Shown here: positions 1,781 to 8,542 of the stretch, piece after piece
Numbering within the stretch: the stretch's first letter is position 1
Layout: each line of letters begins with the position of its first letter
Source of the DNA: Zestosphaera tikiterensis
GTDB taxonomy: Archaea > Thermoproteota > Thermoprotei_A > Sulfolobales > NBVN01
Reading direction: 5' to 3'
DNA length: 8,542 nt
Assembly: GCA_003056265.1 (NCBI GenBank)
Contig: NBVN01000012.1
Location: 1 to 8,542, forward strand
Notes under the pieces: model-generated
Database searches by the model: none
What the model was told of the DNA's origin: nothing
Seen by the model: only the letters and a program-made list of their open reading frames with translations
Translations under genes and position numbers: made by a program

Positions 1781-1963
1781 TCTCTTAATCTTCGACACCC
1801 CTCCGACTATATAGGGTAGAAATAACGTGATGTCAGTCCCTAGGGTAGTAAATACTAGTCTCCTTGTAAGACAGCATATATATCTAGTAGTATCAACCGG
1901 ATTTTAAATGAAGCGATTGTTACTAATTCCCAATATACCTCCCTAAATGCCAAGGAATGTATA

Positions 1964-2002
1964 TGGTGAGCCCGCCGGGGTTTGAACCCAGAACCTCTAG
2001 CT
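1964..2002 (-). other. Orphan tRNA 3'-half (positions ~38-76 including encoded CCA); no matching 5'-half in the window
   Basis: The minus strand reads a-GCTAG-AGGTT-CTGGG-TTCAAAC-CCCGG-CGGGCTC-A-CCA. These are the 3' anticodon-stem strand, a 5-nt variable loop, a T-arm with a canonical TTCAAAC loop (5 bp, one G-U), the 3' acceptor strand, discriminator A and CCA. No G[AG]G[CU][CU][CU]G acceptor partner and no CTAGC anticodon-stem partner occurs in the ~150 nt upstream on that strand. Confidence 0.7.
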
Positions 2003-2127
2003 TCATGGGCTGTAACCCATATCACTCTGTCACATGAAGTCAAGTAGAATCTGCAACATTTTAGGAGGTATGATAAGAAATTCTATAATAGTAAACTTAT
2101 TCTATTGCAACATGTTTTAATCTCAAA

Positions 2128-2155: not shown

Positions 2156-2353
2156 GTGTCTAAGGTCATACGTGTACGTTATGAGAATGGTGCTCTCAAA
2201 CCTCTAGAACCAGTAGATCTAGAGGAGGGAGAGGAGGTCCTAATCGCTATTAGACGTGATATAAGGAAAATACTCAAGAAGTATCGAGGGATTTTAGGAA
2301 GGTCATCGATTAAGGAGTTACTAGAGATCGAGGAGGAGGCTCATATTCAATGA
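2156..2353 (+). CDS. vapB: AF2212/DUF104-family antitoxin (VapB-like)
   Basis: From the GTG at 2156 the product is (M)SKVIRVRYENGALKPLEPVDLEEGEEVLIAIRRD... This is the characteristic N-terminus of the small archaeal AF2212-like antitoxins (consensus roughly xxIxAxYENGVxKPLExVDLxEGxxV). The ORF-track start at TTG 2105 adds 17 hydrophobic, non-conserved residues and overlaps the TATA box. The stop overlaps the next gene's ATG (ATGA at 2350-2353). Confidence 0.8.
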   Translation: MSKVIRVRYENGALKPLEPVDLEEGEEVLIAIRRDIRKILKKYRGILGRSSIKELLEIEEEAHIQ

Positions 2354-2802
2354 GGCTAGCTTACATTGATACTAGCTTCATACTCAGCATTCTACTCGAA
2401 ACCGAGAAGAGTGACTTAGCTGAGCAAATCTTAGAAGCATATAGCGACTCACATTTTATGATTTCGGGGATCGCAATTAATGAAGCCCTATATGTTGCTA
2501 CGTATGAGTATTATAGACAGAAAGGCATAGTTAAGGGAGGGTATAGTTTAAGGAGATTAATTTCAAAACAGGGGTATCCTAGGGAAGTAATAGACGCAAT
2601 AGATTCTTTCCTAAAAGACTTGAATACTAAGATAATAAATGATTACTTTGACTACGATGAATATCTTCAAATAATTCAAAATTTTAAGCTACTTCCTAAT
2701 GATGCACAAATAGCTTTAACATGTAAGCACTACGGCATAAACACTATTCTGACTTTCGACGAGGACTTCAAGAGGATTCCTTGGCTAAGAGTTGCACCCT
2801 AG
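2350..2802 (+). CDS. vapC: PIN-domain ribonuclease toxin (VapC family)
   Basis: The PIN acidic residues are all present: MRLAYIDTS (Asp7), INEAL (Glu), LLPNDAQIAL (Asp) and LTFDEDF (Asp). It has a 4-bp ATGA overlap with the upstream antitoxin gene, the classic type II TA architecture. Confidence 0.85.
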   Translation: MRLAYIDTSFILSILLETEKSDLAEQILEAYSDSHFMISGIAINEALYVATYEYYRQKGIVKGGYSLRRLISKQGYPREVIDAIDSFLKDLNTKIINDYFDYDEYLQIIQNFKLLPNDAQIALTCKHYGINTILTFDEDFKRIPWLRVAP

Positions 2803-2925
2803 ACCGTCAATATTATCTGCTAAGATAATCAGTGATGAAGCTGGAATCAACCTAGTTCTTGTCAGAACTATAAGTCACGGCCTTACCTAGAGAAAGGGGG
2901 AATATTCATATAGGGGGTATTTATG

Positions 2926-3003
2926 TGGCGGGCCCGCCGGGATTTGAACCCGGGACCTCCGGCTCCGGAGGCCGGCACCCTATCCTGGCTAGGCCACGGG
3001 CCC
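2926..3003 (-). tRNA. tRNA-Arg (anticodon CCG), CCA encoded, no intron
   Basis: The minus strand reads GGGCCCG-TG-GCCT-AGCCAGGATA-GGGT-G-CCGGC-CTCCGGA-GCCGG-AGGTC-CCGGG-TTCAAAT-CCCGG-CGGGCCC-G-CCA. It folds as a full cloverleaf with a 7-bp acceptor stem, 5-bp anticodon stem, loop CU-CCG-GA and a canonical T-arm. Confidence 0.93.
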
Positions 3004-3026
3004 CATTCCATATTCTTTCATGTTCG

Positions 3027-3034
3027 TTAATTAA
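3027..3034 (-). promoter_or_regulatory. TATA-like box for tRNA-Arg
   Basis: The palindromic ttaattaa is centred about 27 nt upstream of the tRNA 5' end (3003). It sits in the 39-bp gap after the stop of the KaiC-like gene. Confidence 0.4.
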
Positions 3035-3042
3035 GTTATTGT

Positions 3043-4455
3043 TTATTTCGTTAAGGCTCTTATTTTTATTTCGTTATGTAGCTTACTCGCTAGTTTTTCA
3101 AGGCATGCGTTGATTTGTTCTTCGGTGATGAGTTTGGGTGTGTCTCCTCTGTTCCAGACGTATACCTTATGTTTTATGTTTCCGTTTTCTTCTGTTGTGT
3201 GGAATCTATATATTACGTCTGATAACGACGCGTAGACGTTATATGTTTCGCTGTCGTAAGAGCCTGCCCTAACTACTACAGTACCTAGTTTTTTAAGGTT
3301 TAACATCTCATTGATTAATCCGTTCCAGTAGCTTTCCTCTCTTGATATCCTCTCAAGCTTTGCTAGAATGTCTACGCCGTGGAATATCACCATCCCCGGC
3401 TTATACTTATCTATGAGTTCGTACTCAACCATCCCTAACTGTACGTAGCTCAGCCCACATGGATTTAAACTTTTGAAGACTACGTTATCGTTGTTAAGTA
3501 GGTTGTTAATTAGATCCTCGTTTAAACCGGCTTTAATTAAGCTATTGACTATGAATTCCTTAAGCTCCTCAGGCGGGCTTTTATAGCTTATTATAAGCAC
3601 CCTCAACTTATTTAACAACGCAACGCCAACCATAAACGCAATCATGTGCTTAGGCCTGAAGTCCGGAGGATAAGTAACGTAGATTATATTACCCTTAAAT
3701 ACGGTACCTAAATCTAAACATGGAAGTTCCAACTTATCGCGGATTCGCGACGGTATCTCCTCAAGAACCGTAGAAGGTAAAAACTTTAAACCAACGCCGG
3801 AAGCTATAGTATAAGGCATCCTAGCTACGGAAACCTCAGCGTTTCTAACCTTACCAACCTCAAGAGTTCTACTAATGAAATCCCTCTCAAGCCCAACCTT
3901 TAAAAACAACACCACATCAGCAACGAACTCTAACTCACCTAAATCAACTTCATTAACATGCCTAGGCACCTCAACCAACAAAACAACAACTCCGTTAATG
4001 AGGTGAGGGATTTCAGCAAAGAAGTTCTGCAGGAACGCCCTCTCACTAACTTTACCTCCGAAGACCTTAAGTAAGGGCGTTATAGAATCAACAACTACTA
4101 CTTGAGGCTTTACCTCAGCTATCTTTGTAGAGATAGACTCAACTACGTCGGACACGGAATCCGCCTCAGCTATTAAAGGTAGCTTAACGAAGTGAAGTAA
4201 ACCCCTACCCTCAATCCCCTCTAAATCTATACCTAAATTCCTCATGTTAGCGTAAAGTTTTAATTTATCCTCCTGTAGGGAAACGTATAAACACTTCAAA
4301 CCTGCTAAAGCGTTCGCATAGCAAATACTTGAAGCTAAGGTTGTTTTACCAGCGCCAGCATGCCCAGCTATAACAACTAAGGAGTTCGGAGTTAAAGCGT
4401 TATGAAGGATCTTATCAAGGTGTTCAACACCCCAAGAAAGGACTTTATTTGCCAT
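3043..4455 (-). CDS. Two-domain KaiC/RecA-superfamily ATPase: active N-terminal domain, degenerate C-terminal domain
   Basis: The preferred start is the ATG at 4455 (MANKVLSWGVEHLDKIL...). GGAGGTG lies 8 nt upstream (plus-strand cacctcc, 4464-4470), with A/T-rich TATA-like sequence beyond it. The N-domain has Walker A GHAGAGKT (4342-4365), a KaiC-like SLQED, Walker B VVVVDS and ELEFVADVVLFL. The C-domain (~aa 255-470) keeps the fold signatures (VIFHGVD, SLSDVIYRF). Where the P-loop should be it reads IIYVTYPPDFRPKHMIAF, with no GxxGxGKT. Confidence 0.85.
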   Translation of the reverse strand: MANKVLSWGVEHLDKILHNALTPNSLVVIAGHAGAGKTTLASSICYANALAGLKCLYVSLQEDKLKLYANMRNLGIDLEGIEGRGLLHFVKLPLIAEADSVSDVVESISTKIAEVKPQVVVVDSITPLLKVFGGKVSERAFLQNFFAEIPHLINGVVVLLVEVPRHVNEVDLGELEFVADVVLFLKVGLERDFISRTLEVGKVRNAEVSVARMPYTIASGVGLKFLPSTVLEEIPSRIRDKLELPCLDLGTVFKGNIIYVTYPPDFRPKHMIAFMVGVALLNKLRVLIISYKSPPEELKEFIVNSLIKAGLNEDLINNLLNNDNVVFKSLNPCGLSYVQLGMVEYELIDKYKPGMVIFHGVDILAKLERISREESYWNGLINEMLNLKKLGTVVVRAGSYDSETYNVYASLSDVIYRFHTTEENGNIKHKVYVWNRGDTPKLITEEQINACLEKLASKLHNEIKIRALTK

Positions 4456-4504
4456 GTACACAACACCTCCATATATAGATTTAAAAATAACATAAAAATT
4501 TTTC

Positions 4505-4537
4505 ACTCTTAACCTACTTAACATGTGGTTAAAGAGT
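4505..4537. promoter_or_regulatory. Imperfect inverted repeat in the divergent promoter region (candidate operator)
   Basis: actcttaacc (4505-4514), a 12-nt spacer (tacttaacatgt) and ggttaaagagt (4527-4537). The arms are complementary apart from one extra base. It lies in the 164-bp A/T-rich gap between the KaiC-like gene and the LuxE-like gene. Confidence 0.3.
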
Positions 4538-4619
4538 TGAAGGATAAAATAACTACGGCGATCGTTTAAATAAGTAAAAAATAAAAAGTCGAACTATAAT
4601 TACTCTTAGTAACTCGCCG

Positions 4620-5903
4620 GTGTTGAGAATGGGTGAGGTCTTACCTACGTTAGGTGAGATACTAGAGTTAGCTCAGAAGAGTAAGTTATTAAATGATCCA
4701 TACGTTAAGAGAGTCTACGAGCTTTCAAGCGATACGTCATTATTTAGTAAGTCTCCAGACTGGCTTGAATCATTGCGTAAGTCACTTTTAAGAGATGCCC
4801 TACAGTTCTTCACACGTCATAGCAGGTTTTACGAAGAACTCCTGAGGAAACTTGAGATAGATCCTAAAGCCGCTGAGTTGGAGGACCTTAAGAAATTAGC
4901 CGTACCTTCGGATATGCTGCGTGGTGAAGGATATAAGAAGTTCTTAATAGATGACGTTGATGAAGGTGGTAAGGTATTCTCATCCAGCGGCACCACAGGA
5001 AACACTCCAGTTAAGGTTTATAGAAGCCCTATAGAGTTAGCTATGATGACTAAAGCTAATACAGCCCTCTTTGAGTATGTCTACGGTGGGGAGCTTAAAG
5101 AAGGTCGTGGGCTTGCTTTATTCTTAGCCGCTGAAGAGTTAAGAAATAGGCTTAACTTCGTAGCGTTTGTTGATTTAGCACTTCAAGGTAAGAAGATAAA
5201 GCTACTCTATGGTATGGACTTAGTTGAGGGAAGTACGGGAGGTTCGCAGTGGCAGAAGTTAGTACCGAATAAGAAGAGGATCGTGGAATTCCTAAAGAGT
5301 AAGGAGGAACCTAAGCTACTTTTCACAGCTCCAGCTGGGGTCTACCTTCTAGCCAAGCAGTACGAATCTTTAAATGCGTTTTCAAGACTCCTATATAAGT
5401 TAATGACTGGAACACCGCCGGTAAACTTAGGCGCGGGAGGAACTATAGTGACTGGCGGAGGTAGTAAAGGCTTTAGCGACATACCACCCTACGATAAGAT
5501 CGTTGAAATCGCTAGGAAATGGTTTAAAGCATACGACGTAAACGGAGTTAAGGAAGTCCCCACACCCTTTATGGACGTGTTAGGCATGACTGAAACCCTC
5601 ACCGCCTTAATAGATAAGTATGGAGTAATGCATAAGATCCCACACCCACTACAGCATGTCTTCCTTCTAGATATGAAGACATACGACATCATAGATGCTG
5701 AAGGTAAGGAGGGGATACTAGCTATATACGATCCCCTAGCCATATCCTGGCTTGAGGTATTCATGCCCGGCGACGTCGTTAAATACGTGAATTCCGAAAG
5801 ATACTACGGTAAGGAATTCATCTATGTTCGCAGATTAACTCAAGAAGAGGGTTGGAGCCTTCAAAGAGCTTGCGGCGGGACTTTAGAGGAGATGATGCAT
5901 TAA
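4620..5903 (+). CDS. LuxE-family acyl-protein synthetase (adenylate-forming ANL-superfamily enzyme)
   Basis: FSSSGTTGNTP (4977-5009) is the adenylate-forming phosphate-binding loop. IVTGGGSKGF corresponds to LuxE ITGGGWK. VLGMTETL corresponds to the YGxTE/NQVELNT region. The C-terminal YVRRL...LQRACGG corresponds to LuxE RRV...KGCA. The start is ambiguous among GTG 4620, TTG 4623 and ATG 4629; a tataat-like box at ~4595-4600 would favour a near-leaderless ATG 4629. Confidence 0.75.
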   Translation: MLRMGEVLPTLGEILELAQKSKLLNDPYVKRVYELSSDTSLFSKSPDWLESLRKSLLRDALQFFTRHSRFYEELLRKLEIDPKAAELEDLKKLAVPSDMLRGEGYKKFLIDDVDEGGKVFSSSGTTGNTPVKVYRSPIELAMMTKANTALFEYVYGGELKEGRGLALFLAAEELRNRLNFVAFVDLALQGKKIKLLYGMDLVEGSTGGSQWQKLVPNKKRIVEFLKSKEEPKLLFTAPAGVYLLAKQYESLNAFSRLLYKLMTGTPPVNLGAGGTIVTGGGSKGFSDIPPYDKIVEIARKWFKAYDVNGVKEVPTPFMDVLGMTETLTALIDKYGVMHKIPHPLQHVFLLDMKTYDIIDAEGKEGILAIYDPLAISWLEVFMPGDVVKYVNSERYYGKEFIYVRRLTQEEGWSLQRACGGTLEEMMH

Positions 5904-5915
5904 AGGCGTTCAAAC

Positions 5916-7373
5916 ATGGATTTAGAACCTATATACCTAGGCAAAACCCGGTTAGAAGTTGAGGCAGTTAAGCTGTCGAACCTCACATATAAAGAACCAA
6001 CTATAGATTGGTTGAAGCGGTTCTTAAGCACGGGTGGTGACGTACAAAACAAGCTTTCAAACACTTCAGTTAAGGAAAGGCTTAAGCTAATCGATGAGTT
6101 AGGTAAGGTATGGAGGGAGAAGCTAAACTCGGGCAAGCTTGATCACTTAAAGAAAAACTTAGTTAAAACGACTGGATATAGCGAGAGACTCATAGATATG
6201 GAGTTCAGCCTAGTCTCTGAAGTTCTGAATAGTGAAAACCTCGTTAAATTGCTGGACGCCGGCTTAAAAGGTGGTTTAGCAAGTCTTGAAGGACCTTCCG
6301 AAATAGCTAGTAATGAATACTTAATGAACGTCCCCGCAGGCCCTGTGTTTATAATCAGCTCAGGTAACTCCGTAATCCCTCCTTTAATACCCACCGTAGT
6401 ATCTTTAGTTGTAGGCAATCAAACAATCCTTAAGCCCTCGATAAGCAATTACTTAGCAGTTAAGGAAGTGTTTGAAGGGTTTAAAGAAGTCTTGAATTCC
6501 TACGCTGATGCTTCAGCATATGCTGAAGCCTTACTCGTGAGTTACTTCTCACATAACAGTAAAGCCCTTCAATACCTACTTAAGGAAGCCCCCTTAGGAG
6601 TGGTTAATTACTGGGGTGGTGATCCAGGAAGGTTAACGGTATCTAAAGCCGTGGCTGAGAACTTAAACAAGCCTAAGTTAGTGGTTAACGGCCCCTTAAC
6701 GGGTTTTGCTATCGTGGATGAAGCCTCCGCTAATGAAGCAAACGCTGAAAAGCTAGCTTTTGATATAGTGCTTTACGATCAGCAATTATGTAGCTCCCCA
6801 ACCCAAGCGGCGTTCATAGGGAATTTCGATTCAGCAGTAAATTTCGCTAAACTACTTGGCAAGGCTTTAGATAGGGTTGGGTTGGAATTTAAAATCGATT
6901 TAAGCGAGGGCCATTTATATAACATAGTTAAGTTGAGAAGAGCTTTAGAATACGTTAGAACAACGCGGAATAAAGTACTGTATTCCACAGACCCTTCAAA
7001 TCCTTGGACGTTAGTTGTTAGTGAAGGTAGGTCTACCTTAGCCGAAGTAGCTTCATCTATAAACACCACCGTCTACGAAAGAAGAAGGTTTTTAGAACTC
7101 ATCACCGTAAACGACTTAGATCAGGCGGTGGATTTAATCCTTAATCTACGCGTTAACCCAGCCTTCACTGGAGTCGATAAAGTTCAGACCGTAGCTTTAG
7201 CTGTAAGTAAAGACTTAGAGCTTCAAGCCGTGAGGAAGTTATCGCGGGCAGGCGTATATAGGATCGTGCCCTTAGGTGAGACATACCTTAGAACACCTTA
7301 CGAACCTTACGACGGCTTTAGCCTCCCATCAGTCTTCACATACAGCGTTTACTTCAGGAGGGGATCAACCTGA
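5916..7373 (+). CDS. LuxC-family acyl-CoA (acyl-enzyme) reductase, ALDH-like fold
   Basis: The blocks are collinear with LuxC. FIISSGNSVIPPLIPTVVSLVVGNQTILKPS matches LLAGNVPLSG...IIKTS. NYWGGD matches VAWGGD. VVNGPLTGFAIV matches KFGPKKSLSII. LYDQQLCSSPTQ matches FYDQQACFSTQ and holds the acylated catalytic Cys, here Cys292 (TGT 6789-6791). SRAGVYRIVPLG matches ARSGVERIVESG. The gene starts 12 nt after the LuxE-like stop. Confidence 0.8.
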   Translation: MDLEPIYLGKTRLEVEAVKLSNLTYKEPTIDWLKRFLSTGGDVQNKLSNTSVKERLKLIDELGKVWREKLNSGKLDHLKKNLVKTTGYSERLIDMEFSLVSEVLNSENLVKLLDAGLKGGLASLEGPSEIASNEYLMNVPAGPVFIISSGNSVIPPLIPTVVSLVVGNQTILKPSISNYLAVKEVFEGFKEVLNSYADASAYAEALLVSYFSHNSKALQYLLKEAPLGVVNYWGGDPGRLTVSKAVAENLNKPKLVVNGPLTGFAIVDEASANEANAEKLAFDIVLYDQQLCSSPTQAAFIGNFDSAVNFAKLLGKALDRVGLEFKIDLSEGHLYNIVKLRRALEYVRTTRNKVLYSTDPSNPWTLVVSEGRSTLAEVASSINTTVYERRRFLELITVNDLDQAVDLILNLRVNPAFTGVDKVQTVALAVSKDLELQAVRKLSRAGVYRIVPLGETYLRTPYEPYDGFSLPSVFTYSVYFRRGST

Positions 7374-8365
7374 AGGTTCTGGTAACCGGCGCTTCCGGCT
7401 TCGTAGGAGGTCATTTAATTGAGGAATTGATTAGGAAGGGTTATGAAGTTCGTGGTATGGTACGTAAAACTAGTGACGTAAGCCTTTTAAAGCAGTTGGA
7501 TGTTGAGATAGCTTACGCAGATTTAACCCAGCCCGAAACCCTCGTTGAAGTAGTTAAGGGTGTTGATGCCGTAATACATTTAGCGGCTTACTACACGTTC
7601 TACGGTAAGAAAGAGCTTTATAGGCTGGTAAACGTTGAAGGAACTGAAAACCTAGCTAAGCTGTCTTTAAAGAACGGAGTTAAAAGGTTTATATACTGCA
7701 GCTCAACCGAAGCTATAGGCCCCGTTAAAAACCCACCCGGAGATGAGAACACAGAACCAAACCCGCAGTTTGAGTATGGAAGGTCTAAACTTCAGGCGGA
7801 GCTTAAGGTCAGGGAATTAAGTCGTTACGGATTAAAATACACTATAGTAAGGCCTTCAGGGATTTACGGTCCGCGAAACGTAGATGACGTCGCGTACTGG
7901 TTCATAACCACGTACGCTAAAGGGGGGTTAGCGTCGAAGATTATAGTTGGGTCTGGTACGAATTTAGTGCAGTTTGCCCACGTTAAAGACGTAGTTCAAG
8001 GGTTTACGCTAGTTCTGGAGAGGTGGGACGTTTCCGAAAATCAAACATATATCGTGAGTGAGGATAGGGCTTATACGTATTTAGAGGTTTACAAGATATT
8101 GTCTGAAATCTTAGGTAAGGAACCTCCTAAATATCACGTAAATCCTAAACTAGCTAAGGCCCTACTCCTCTTCGCTGAGGTCTACGATAGACTTAGAGGT
8201 GGTGAGAACTTCATGTATAGAGTTAAAGTGGTTGACGCCGTAACCAGTGATAGAGCGTATAGCGTAGAGAAAGCTAAGAGGGAGTTGGGTTATATGCCTA
8301 AATATGATTTAAGGAGAGGTCTTTACGAAACGATCGAATGGTACCGTAGTAATGGTTTCCTATAA
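7370..8365 (+). CDS. Extended short-chain dehydrogenase/reductase (NAD-dependent epimerase/dehydratase / aldehyde-reductase-like); start codon non-canonical or lost
   Basis: The frame-2 reading from 7370 gives (L)KVLVTGASGFVGGHLIEELIRKGYEV, with the TGxxGxxG Rossmann motif at 7385-7411. It continues with CSSTEAIG (catalytic Ser region), YGRSK (the YxxxK catalytic dyad) and VRPSGIYGP. The frame is open from 7322 but contains no ATG, GTG or TTG before the TTG at 7427, which lies after the Rossmann motif. GGAGG at 7357-7361 sits 8 nt before CTG 7370, which overlaps the LuxC-like TGA as CTGA. Confidence 0.8.
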   Translation: MKVLVTGASGFVGGHLIEELIRKGYEVRGMVRKTSDVSLLKQLDVEIAYADLTQPETLVEVVKGVDAVIHLAAYYTFYGKKELYRLVNVEGTENLAKLSLKNGVKRFIYCSSTEAIGPVKNPPGDENTEPNPQFEYGRSKLQAELKVRELSRYGLKYTIVRPSGIYGPRNVDDVAYWFITTYAKGGLASKIIVGSGTNLVQFAHVKDVVQGFTLVLERWDVSENQTYIVSEDRAYTYLEVYKILSEILGKEPPKYHVNPKLAKALLLFAEVYDRLRGGENFMYRVKVVDAVTSDRAYSVEKAKRELGYMPKYDLRRGLYETIEWYRSNGFL

Positions 8366-8374
8366 GATAATGCT

Positions 8375-8542
8375 TTAATCAGTTAGTACCTTAATCCACT
8401 TAATCTCCCTTAGGTATTCCTCCGGCGGTTTAGACGGTGCTCCAGTCATGGGGTCAGTCATCTCTTTAGTTTTCGGGAAGGCTATAACTTCCCTTATGTT
8501 GTCGTAGCCTAAAGCTATAGCTACAAGCCTATCCAAACCTAA
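8375..8542 (-). CDS. C-terminal end of a class II aminoacyl-tRNA synthetase with a bacterial-type AspRS-like tail (5' part outside window)
   Basis: The minus-strand frame open to the window edge reads [55 protein letters not shown]-stop (TAA = plus-strand tta, 8375-8377). It matches class II motif 3 and the bacterial AspRS tail pattern FGLDRLxMLLxGxDNIRDVIAFPKTxxxxxLMTxAPSxxxxxxLxELxI. It is convergent with the SDR gene, and the two stops are 9 bp apart. Confidence 0.65.

Follow-up and report, generated by a model that had tools for sequence, protein, structure and literature searches.

The tRNA-like fragment on the minus strand at positions 1964–2013 of the window, that is, of the whole of contig C5 (8.5 kb), is very probably (a probability of about 0.9) an attR-type scar of integration into a tRNA-Arg(CCG) gene, which bounds a cassette carrying a vapBC toxin–antitoxin operon. 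The fragment is a direct repeat, in the same orientation and downstream of an intact cognate tRNA gene; the repeat has its 5′ limit at the anticodon stem-loop (position 27 of the tRNA, compared to position 31 in a control element of the same genome); and the DNA between the repeats is accessory and varies in its presence, with an additional 10.3 kb in the allelic locus on contig C8 and a patchy distribution of VapC. The repeat, its target, the cargo, a stack of related units in the allelic locus and the control element with its integrase can all be read directly from the assembly. As such, the orphan fragment is a new instance of a well-known kind, the archaeal tRNA integration remnant, and should be counted neither as a tRNA gene nor as evidence on tRNA gene fragmentation.

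The target is an intact tRNA-Arg(CCG) gene with an encoded CCA at 2926–3003 on the minus strand (ARAGORN; Rfam tRNA model, 61.7 bits, E 7.9e-12), in which all four stems are fully paired and which would mark the attL side. It is located toward higher coordinates and in the same orientation as the orphan, with 918 bp between the two, exactly on the side where the original prediction expected a second copy of the 3′ half inside an intact tRNA. The element between them, a vapBC module, supports the first of the two explanations offered there, namely, that the orphan is an attR-type duplicate produced by an integrase that targets tRNA genes. Measured from repeat to repeat, the unit spans 962 bp and contains only two genes, vapB and vapC, both on the plus strand, with the operon reading away from the orphan. 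The 3′ end of the tRNA is separated from vapC by a proximal arm (2803–2925, minus strand); the C5/C8 alignments overlap at 2908–2952, and the first 18 nt after the tRNA CCA (2908–2925) recur together with the tRNA end at a further att copy, c, on C8. The vapC gene (2350–2802, plus strand) encodes a PIN-domain toxin (PF01850, E 4.5e-18) and overlaps by 4 nt the gene for the AF2212-like antitoxin, vapB (2156–2353, plus strand; PF01954, E 1.6e-22, residues 19–77 of an 82-aa ORF). The mechanically predicted vapB ORF starts at 2105, but the likely start, judging by the Pfam VapB match, which begins there, is the in-frame GTG at 2156. A putative TATA-like box of the vapBC operon, read from the sequence, is located at 2130–2138 on the plus strand, 18–26 nt before this GTG.

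The remainder of the unit, immediately upstream of the repeat, consists of an element-side arm, or ‘leader’ (2014–2104, minus strand), which is not tRNA-like; two copies on C8 have retained it along with the repeat, the allelic one being approximately 91% identical and copy b 75% identical over 142 nt (E 3.7e-19 to 3.7e-21). A genome-wide search with the arm yielded no further copies beyond those two. A motif scan identified one ATGTTGCA motif within the arm (2052–2059, minus strand) and a second one at 2106–2113 (minus strand), which is 54 nt away from the other and lies shortly before the TATA box of vapBC; two matches are found in the window against 0.08 expected, and none of 200 shuffled sequences reached two. 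The arm was not found in exact-pattern scans of viral, genome and metagenome collections, so that no intact parent element is known, and BLAST searches of the arm against 60 relatives matched only the T-arms of ordinary tRNAs.

No integrase, either intact or split, is present within the element, which is hence a remnant or an integrase-less cassette rather than a complete element: in the cassette and the rest of C5, as well as in the 56–71 kb region of C8, searches for PF16795 and PF00589 and tblastn searches with the integrase of this genome gave no match. An SSV-type integrase gene split through the repeat was considered and dismissed, given that the 62-aa ORF at 1855–2043 (minus strand) has no Pfam match and that tblastn searches with the genome's own integrase were blank on C5 and in the C8 island. 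Another candidate, a 446-aa protein of the C8 island, shows no similarity to the integrase encoded on contig C14 and no Pfam or PHROG match.

Read on the minus strand from 2001 to 1964, the orphan comprises the 3′ strand of the anticodon stem (GCTAG), a 5-nt variable loop and a T-arm in which all five pairs are retained (CTGGG/TTCAAAC/CCCGG), followed by the 3′ strand of the acceptor stem (CGGGCTC), the discriminator A and the CCA (1966–1964). In the ungapped register from the CCA end, 32 of the 39 nucleotides corresponding to positions 38–76 are identical to the neighbouring tRNA-Arg(CCG), in agreement with the original prediction, which had recognized this same succession of tRNA parts on this strand. 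Judging by the alignment, the tRNA 3′ portion at 1964–2007 (minus strand) is real, far above chance. The acceptor 5′ strand and the D-arm are absent upstream, also as predicted, with 11 of the 28 upstream nucleotides matching the tRNA 5′ part (null mean 6.5, sd 2.2; P ~0.04), an ambiguous excess. A complete tRNA spanning the locus, which a covariance-model search might have revealed, did not materialize: the Rfam model RF00005 gave no match at the orphan with E up to 10, including when the 221 bases at 1900–2120 were searched alone, and ARAGORN, intron mode included, called no tRNA there. An intron-containing or permuted tRNA was rejected, since neither the Rfam model, run both on the whole window and on the 221 bases alone, nor ARAGORN in intron mode gave anything at the orphan.

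What did not hold is the clean start at the boundary between the anticodon loop and stem and the lack of an anticodon-stem partner. The tRNA likeness also takes in the anticodon loop and the 5′ strand of its stem and reaches coordinate 2013, which corresponds to position 27; from 2010, i.e. from the last three bases of the 5′ strand, to the CCA at 1964, 36 of 47 nucleotides are identical to the tRNA, as counted by eye on the alignment, and the repeat is ~77% identical to tRNA-Arg(CCG). In the window copy, three of the five anticodon-stem pairs are retained. The 111-nt stretch consisting of the arm and the tRNA part has two more copies on C8, a (89% identical over 111 nt) and b (80%), and in both the stem is better preserved: copy a has the anticodon stem-loop CCAGC/CTCTGGA/GCCGG with 4/5 pairs and is 95% identical to tRNA-Arg(CCG) over 41 nt (E 1.6e-12), and copy b (CTAGC/CTCCGAA/GCTAG) has 5/5 pairs and an anticodon CCG that is still readable, along with a mismatch in the T stem. 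The perfect stem-loop with the CCG in copy b places the start of the repeat unit at the anticodon stem, at position 27. The Rfam tRNA model aligns positions 6–65 of copies a and b with 22.1 and 18.4 bits, respectively, below the 29-bit threshold.

The orphan differs from the tRNA at 13 positions; 11 of the changes are transitions and 11 are GC-to-AT. This pattern bears the signature of neutral decay, with changes that break pairs and do not preserve the structure. The apparently clean 37/38 break arose because GC-to-AT decay blurred the anticodon stem and loop; the orphan thus shows that decay can mimic such a break. The 7-bp helix which the original prediction had noted at the junction (2033–2039 with 2001–2007) does exist in the sequence, but a perfect stem of at least 7 bp arises in 54 of 500 shuffled sequences, neither sister copy has the helix, and it lies outside the minimum-energy fold; it is at chance level.

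The allelic locus on C8 provides a second view of the same site. Positions 1–2952 of C5 align with C8 70592–67675 at 94% identity, positions 8168–8542 align with C8 56912–56538 at 97%, and the counterpart of the window tRNA-Arg is found at C8 57256–57333. On these alignments, C5 is a second, allelic haplotype of the C8 locus within one MAG. The additional 10.3 kb of C8 sit exactly between the 3′ end of the tRNA and another copy of the tRNA end, repeat c, which covers approximately position 52 to the CCA plus 18 nt. Along C8, the parts succeed one another as follows: tRNA-Arg, islet 1, arm with repeat b, islet 2, repeat c, vapBC, arm with repeat a, chromosome. The islets contain mostly toxin–antitoxin genes, their content comprising UPF0175/DUF3368, MazE-like, HicAB, AF2212-like, PIN_2 and CAAX-protease-like genes and a GNAT fragment. 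A 39-nt tRNA-Ser fragment is also found in islet 2 (C8 63830–63868); it corresponds to positions 31–69, is 92% identical to tRNA-Ser(GGA) on C14 and adjoins an AF2212-like antitoxin gene, hinting at a cassette that formed first at tRNA-Ser and was then carried into the tRNA-Arg island.

The two haplotypes differ unevenly. Over 1940–2110, C5 and copy a differ at 16 positions, eight of which fall within 24 nt of the orphan (1990–2013), against a background of ~3–4 differences per 100 nt. In this segment, the copy a version equals the live tRNA, whereas the C5 version has GAAGCTAG in common with copy b, a distribution suggestive of gene conversion among the repeat copies. The intergenic region at 1705–1900 of the window, which follows a gene for a 567-aa HTH/ATPase-type protein, is far more diverged than its surroundings, with 74 C5/C8 differences in 200 nt compared to ~3–4 per 100 nt elsewhere. 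On the 5′ side of tRNA-Arg, C5 has 5.2 kb (3004–8167), encoding a KaiC-like ATPase, a 427-aa protein without a family match, a LuxC-like acyl-CoA reductase and an NAD-dependent epimerase, whereas C8 has only 343 bp (56913–57255). Given that the last ~200 nt of the epimerase gene remain in C8, the latter looks like a deletion on the 5′ side of the tRNA. Just upstream of the C8 tRNA-Arg (C8 56930–57045), there is a short repeat of ~70–110 nt, which is present in more than 25 copies with 75–91% identity on C2, C8, C12 and C14 and may be a MITE-like element or a small-RNA module. Finally, over the 40 nt that precede tRNA-Arg(CCG) on C8 and contain its promoter, the sequence is almost the same as that ahead of tRNA-Arg(GCG) on C2 (C8 57216–57333 versus C2 120505–120620, 95.7% over 116 nt) and differs from the upstream region of the C5 allele; this likeness suggests recombination between tRNA-Arg paralogues.

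Further scars of integration were found when every tRNA was compared with the genome by BLAST and the matches were inspected. As a positive control, on C14, tRNA-Thr(TGT) (286166–286239) is followed, 66 bp on, by a gene for an intact 432-aa SSV-family integrase with a PF16795 domain and a weak HTH, and an exact 44-nt copy of tRNA positions 31–74 is located ~32 kb away. C14 286166–318458 is an apparently intact 32-kb element integrated into tRNA-Thr(TGT). Two small overlapping ORFs by its attR (114 and 70 aa) have no credible family assignment, one lacking a Pfam match and the other having a sub-threshold one. At tRNA-Val(CAC), there is an exact 39-nt copy of positions 34–72 at a distance of ~1.1 kb, with a DUF433 gene in between, and at tRNA-Arg(TCG) (C19 196–270), a 37-nt copy is found 9.9 kb away, adjoined by a UPF0175/PIN-like pair. 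The C19 island (196–10140), in which no integrase was found, additionally encodes a 1593-aa protein with DUF7619 and a PIN toxin preceded by a small ORF without a Pfam match. Scars at several tRNA genes indicate that integration at the anticodon stem-loop, with a repeat of the tRNA 3′ part, is routine in this genome, and in the decayed cases, the genes left beside the distal repeat are of the toxin–antitoxin or antitoxin type. Two regions, C1 902–1120 and C12 76893–77118, are similar to the middle of the C14 integrase (65–85% identity, with a frame change in C12) and are probably remnants of other integrated elements.

The history of the locus could be reconstructed as follows. [quoted passage not shown] If the stem arms served as core sites and the loop as the overlap, this would explain why the repeat unit starts at the stem. 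An intact tRNA gene would have been re-formed at 2926–3003, and a second copy of tRNA positions 27–76 would have been left 962 bp away, at 1964–2013, joined to the element's own arm (2014–2104). The vapBC operon and its promoter would be the remnant of the element or, perhaps, its entire original content. The orphan, presumably free from selection as an RNA, would then have lost its anticodon loop and some of the stem to GC-to-AT transitions in the C5 haplotype. The repeat identity of ~77% implies that either the event is old or the att site of the element differed from the host tRNA. No fully empty site, in which the tRNA would directly adjoin the flank at 1963, was seen.

To judge by the adjacent aaRS gene, the nearest relatives are Desulfurococcales MAGs; at the two nearest of these loci with the neighbouring aaRS gene, there is no tRNA. 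VapC homologues with 60–84% identity show a patchy distribution across other families of the order, and within the window's own family, the best VapC match outside this genome is 46% identical. Many of the homologous vapBC operons lie between a tRNA-Arg gene (GCG, TCG or CCG) and an orphan tRNA-Arg 3′ part, or between two orphans, and the orphan parts in these related cassettes begin at the anticodon stem. The repeat-to-repeat distance is nearly constant in three genomes from three families, namely, 962 bp in the window, 965 bp in locus L057 and 965 bp in locus L073. In L057, the 49-nt repeat, read as exact, aligns to the 3′ part of the window tRNA-Arg(CCG), and its vapBC is collinear with that of the window (71% DNA identity). 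The ATGTTGCA pair is also found beside the orphan tRNA-Arg parts of L057 (55 nt apart) and L061 (54 nt apart), and other cassettes carry different repeated motifs at the same place (TGTCCCA/TGGGACA or GTTTCCA/TGGAAAC). Arms of the L062 type (L072, L073, L076, L077; L064, L071, L073), which precede orphan tRNA-Arg parts in other genomes, contain three or four copies of short motifs, direct and inverted, with TGTCCCA/TGGGACA in one set and GTTTCCA/TGGAAAC in another. These motifs resemble binding sites for proteins and differ from cassette to cassette.

The constant unit length, the exact repeat and collinear vapBC of L057 and the conserved ATGTTGCA spacing underlie a tentative proposal, to which we give slightly less than even odds, that the 962-bp unit (proximal arm, vapC, vapB, arm with two ATGTTGCA motifs 54 nt apart and tRNA-Arg att) is not the stump of a larger element but a self-contained, integrase-less integrative cassette, which would be moved between hot-spring archaea by tyrosine integrases acting in trans and stack at tRNA-Arg genes. 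SSV-family integrase genes at four loci from the same order (L083, L085, L089 and L092) adjoin orphan 3′ parts of tRNA-Arg CCG, TCG or GCG that start at the anticodon loop, indicating that integrases of the right specificity exist in this group. The pattern that emerges is one of fixed-size, one-operon toxin–antitoxin cassettes bounded by partial copies of tRNA-Arg and stacked at tRNA-Arg genes in several thermophilic archaeal families; in the literature searched, we found no description of fixed-size, integrase-less, single-operon toxin–antitoxin cassettes at tRNA-Arg. If such cassettes indeed combine their own att sites with borrowed integrases, this would explain the multiplication and spread of vapBC in such archaeal genomes. 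The scar itself is ordinary, and the possible family of trans-mobilized cassettes is the part worth following.

Three other origins of the orphan were weighed against an integration scar. A plain tRNA pseudogene, produced by local duplication or ectopic recombination of tRNA-Arg, with vapBC arriving independently, would account for the lack of an integrase, for the marginal tRNA likeness of the 28 nt upstream (11/28, P ~0.04) and for the alignment of positions 6–65 of the allelic copy to the Rfam model, albeit at 22 bits, below the threshold. We nevertheless consider this origin improbable, given that, in the C8 stack, one and the same non-tRNA arm is found ahead of two independent repeats and that the succession of tRNA-Arg, vapC, vapB, arm and tRNA-Arg 3′ part recurs in other genomes at different tRNA-Arg isoacceptors. 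Such a recurring architecture, in one case with an exact 49-nt repeat, points to site-specific insertion rather than random duplication. Some VapC toxins cleave tRNAs, and the tRNA-like piece could be imagined as a functional part of the vapBC locus, serving as a decoy or substrate mimic for the PIN toxin or as a terminator or insulator. Consistent with such a role, a toxin–antitoxin operon that reads away from the orphan piece adjoins it in the window and its allelic copy a, in copy b and at tRNA-Arg(TCG) on C19; at the tRNA-Ser fragment on C8, an antitoxin-type gene is close and in the same orientation, and at tRNA-Val(CAC), such a gene is located one small ORF further in. However, there is no promoter for the tRNA-like strand, the structure is not conserved among the copies, and the tRNA identity tracks the insertion target (Arg, Ser, Val) rather than the family of the toxin. 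That addiction modules outlast all other cargo explains the association. We consider a functional role highly improbable.

The remaining candidate, put forward in the original prediction as its second explanation, is a 3′-half gene of a trans-spliced split tRNA, the leader of which would pair with the trailer of a 5′ half, the halves being joined at 37/38 by the splicing endonuclease and a ligase. From position 38 on, the orphan still folds (T-arm, acceptor 3′ strand, CCA); split tRNAs are known in Desulfurococcales (PMC3218864), the group to which the nearest relatives by aaRS belong; and with the genome being 93% complete, the 5′ half could have remained unassembled. Characterized split halves have a strong promoter (BRE/TATA), a leader that is rich in G+C and complementary to the partner trailer, and a bulge-helix-bulge junction, and represent an isoacceptor that is otherwise missing (PMC3218864). 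The bulge-helix-bulge can be assessed only with a partner half, and no such half was found in the 1.8-Mb assembly (93% complete): none of the 77 genomic sites of the acceptor 5′ strand GAGCCCG resembles a tRNA 5′ half, and a looser 5′-half pattern with G-U pairs allowed returned only coding-sequence noise across the whole assembly. Likewise, the genome search for a 5′-half gene with a trailer complementary to the orphan leader gave only matches at chance level, the longest being 13 nt (E ≥1.2), and the leader, with a G+C content of 0.46, is not G+C-rich. The 48 tRNA genes of the genome are preceded by an A-rich BRE and a TATA box (CTTTTAA or CTTATAA) at approximately −38 to −28, whereas no such BRE/TATA is conserved among the three orphan copies (C5, C8a and C8b). 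The Arg tRNAs with the anticodons CCG, GCG, TCG, CCT and TCT are all intact, so that no isoacceptor is missing; the orphan is plainly derived from tRNA-Arg(CCG), anticodon loop included in the sister copies, and its changes break pairs instead of keeping them. Nor do the 37/38 break, a product of decay, and the chance-level 7-bp helix speak for a split tRNA. On these comparisons, a split tRNA is largely refuted and, as the least probable of the origins considered, was rejected in favour of the integration scar.

Among the known systems, the scar of tRNA-Arg(CCG) is closest to the integration products of archaeal elements. Most archaeal att sites are in tRNA genes, with the anticodon loop as the overlap region and the flanking stem as the core sites; they can reach toward the D-loop, and tandem integration at one locus occurs (PMC8371274). 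In Sulfolobus islandicus, many degenerate remnants are found at tRNA genes, some of them with vapBC (PMC3718332), and archaeal tRNA fragments resulting from element integration have been described by van der Gulik et al. (PMC9897764). The orphan shares with partial genes mis-listed as tRNAs its nature as a non-canonical fragment from archaeal element integration (PMC9897764) but differs from them in receiving no tRNA call from either ARAGORN or the Rfam model. With the split tRNA 3′ halves of Nanoarchaeum, Caldivirga, Aeropyrum, Thermosphaera and Staphylothermus (PMC3218864), it has in common a lone 3′ portion in a hyperthermophile and an apparent boundary near 37/38; unlike these, it lacks a promoter, a G+C-rich complementary leader and a 5′ half, there is no missing isoacceptor for it to supply, its cognate tRNA is 0.9 kb off, and it is decaying. 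The attL/attR sites of SSV- and pNOB8-type elements, by comparison, display the same direct repeat from the anticodon stem-loop to the 3′ end, the same reconstituted tRNA and the same foreign DNA in between (PMC8371274, PMC3718332), and remnants of such elements likewise are often degenerate, with several stacked at one tRNA and vapBC among the cargo. The cassette departs from SSV- and pNOB8-type elements in having neither an integrase nor a split int gene, in measuring only 962 bp with one toxin–antitoxin pair, and in a repeat identity of ~77%. Bacterial cis-mobilizable elements (CIMEs), such as those related to ICESt1, which undergo tandem accretion at tRNA genes, also are att-flanked, integrase-less and stacked, and are presumably moved in trans. 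Compared to CIMEs, the unit described here resides in an archaeal host, is much smaller, carries a toxin–antitoxin pair as its only cargo and is only putatively mobile; by analogy, the tRNA-Arg cassette may be an archaeal counterpart of the bacterial CIMEs.
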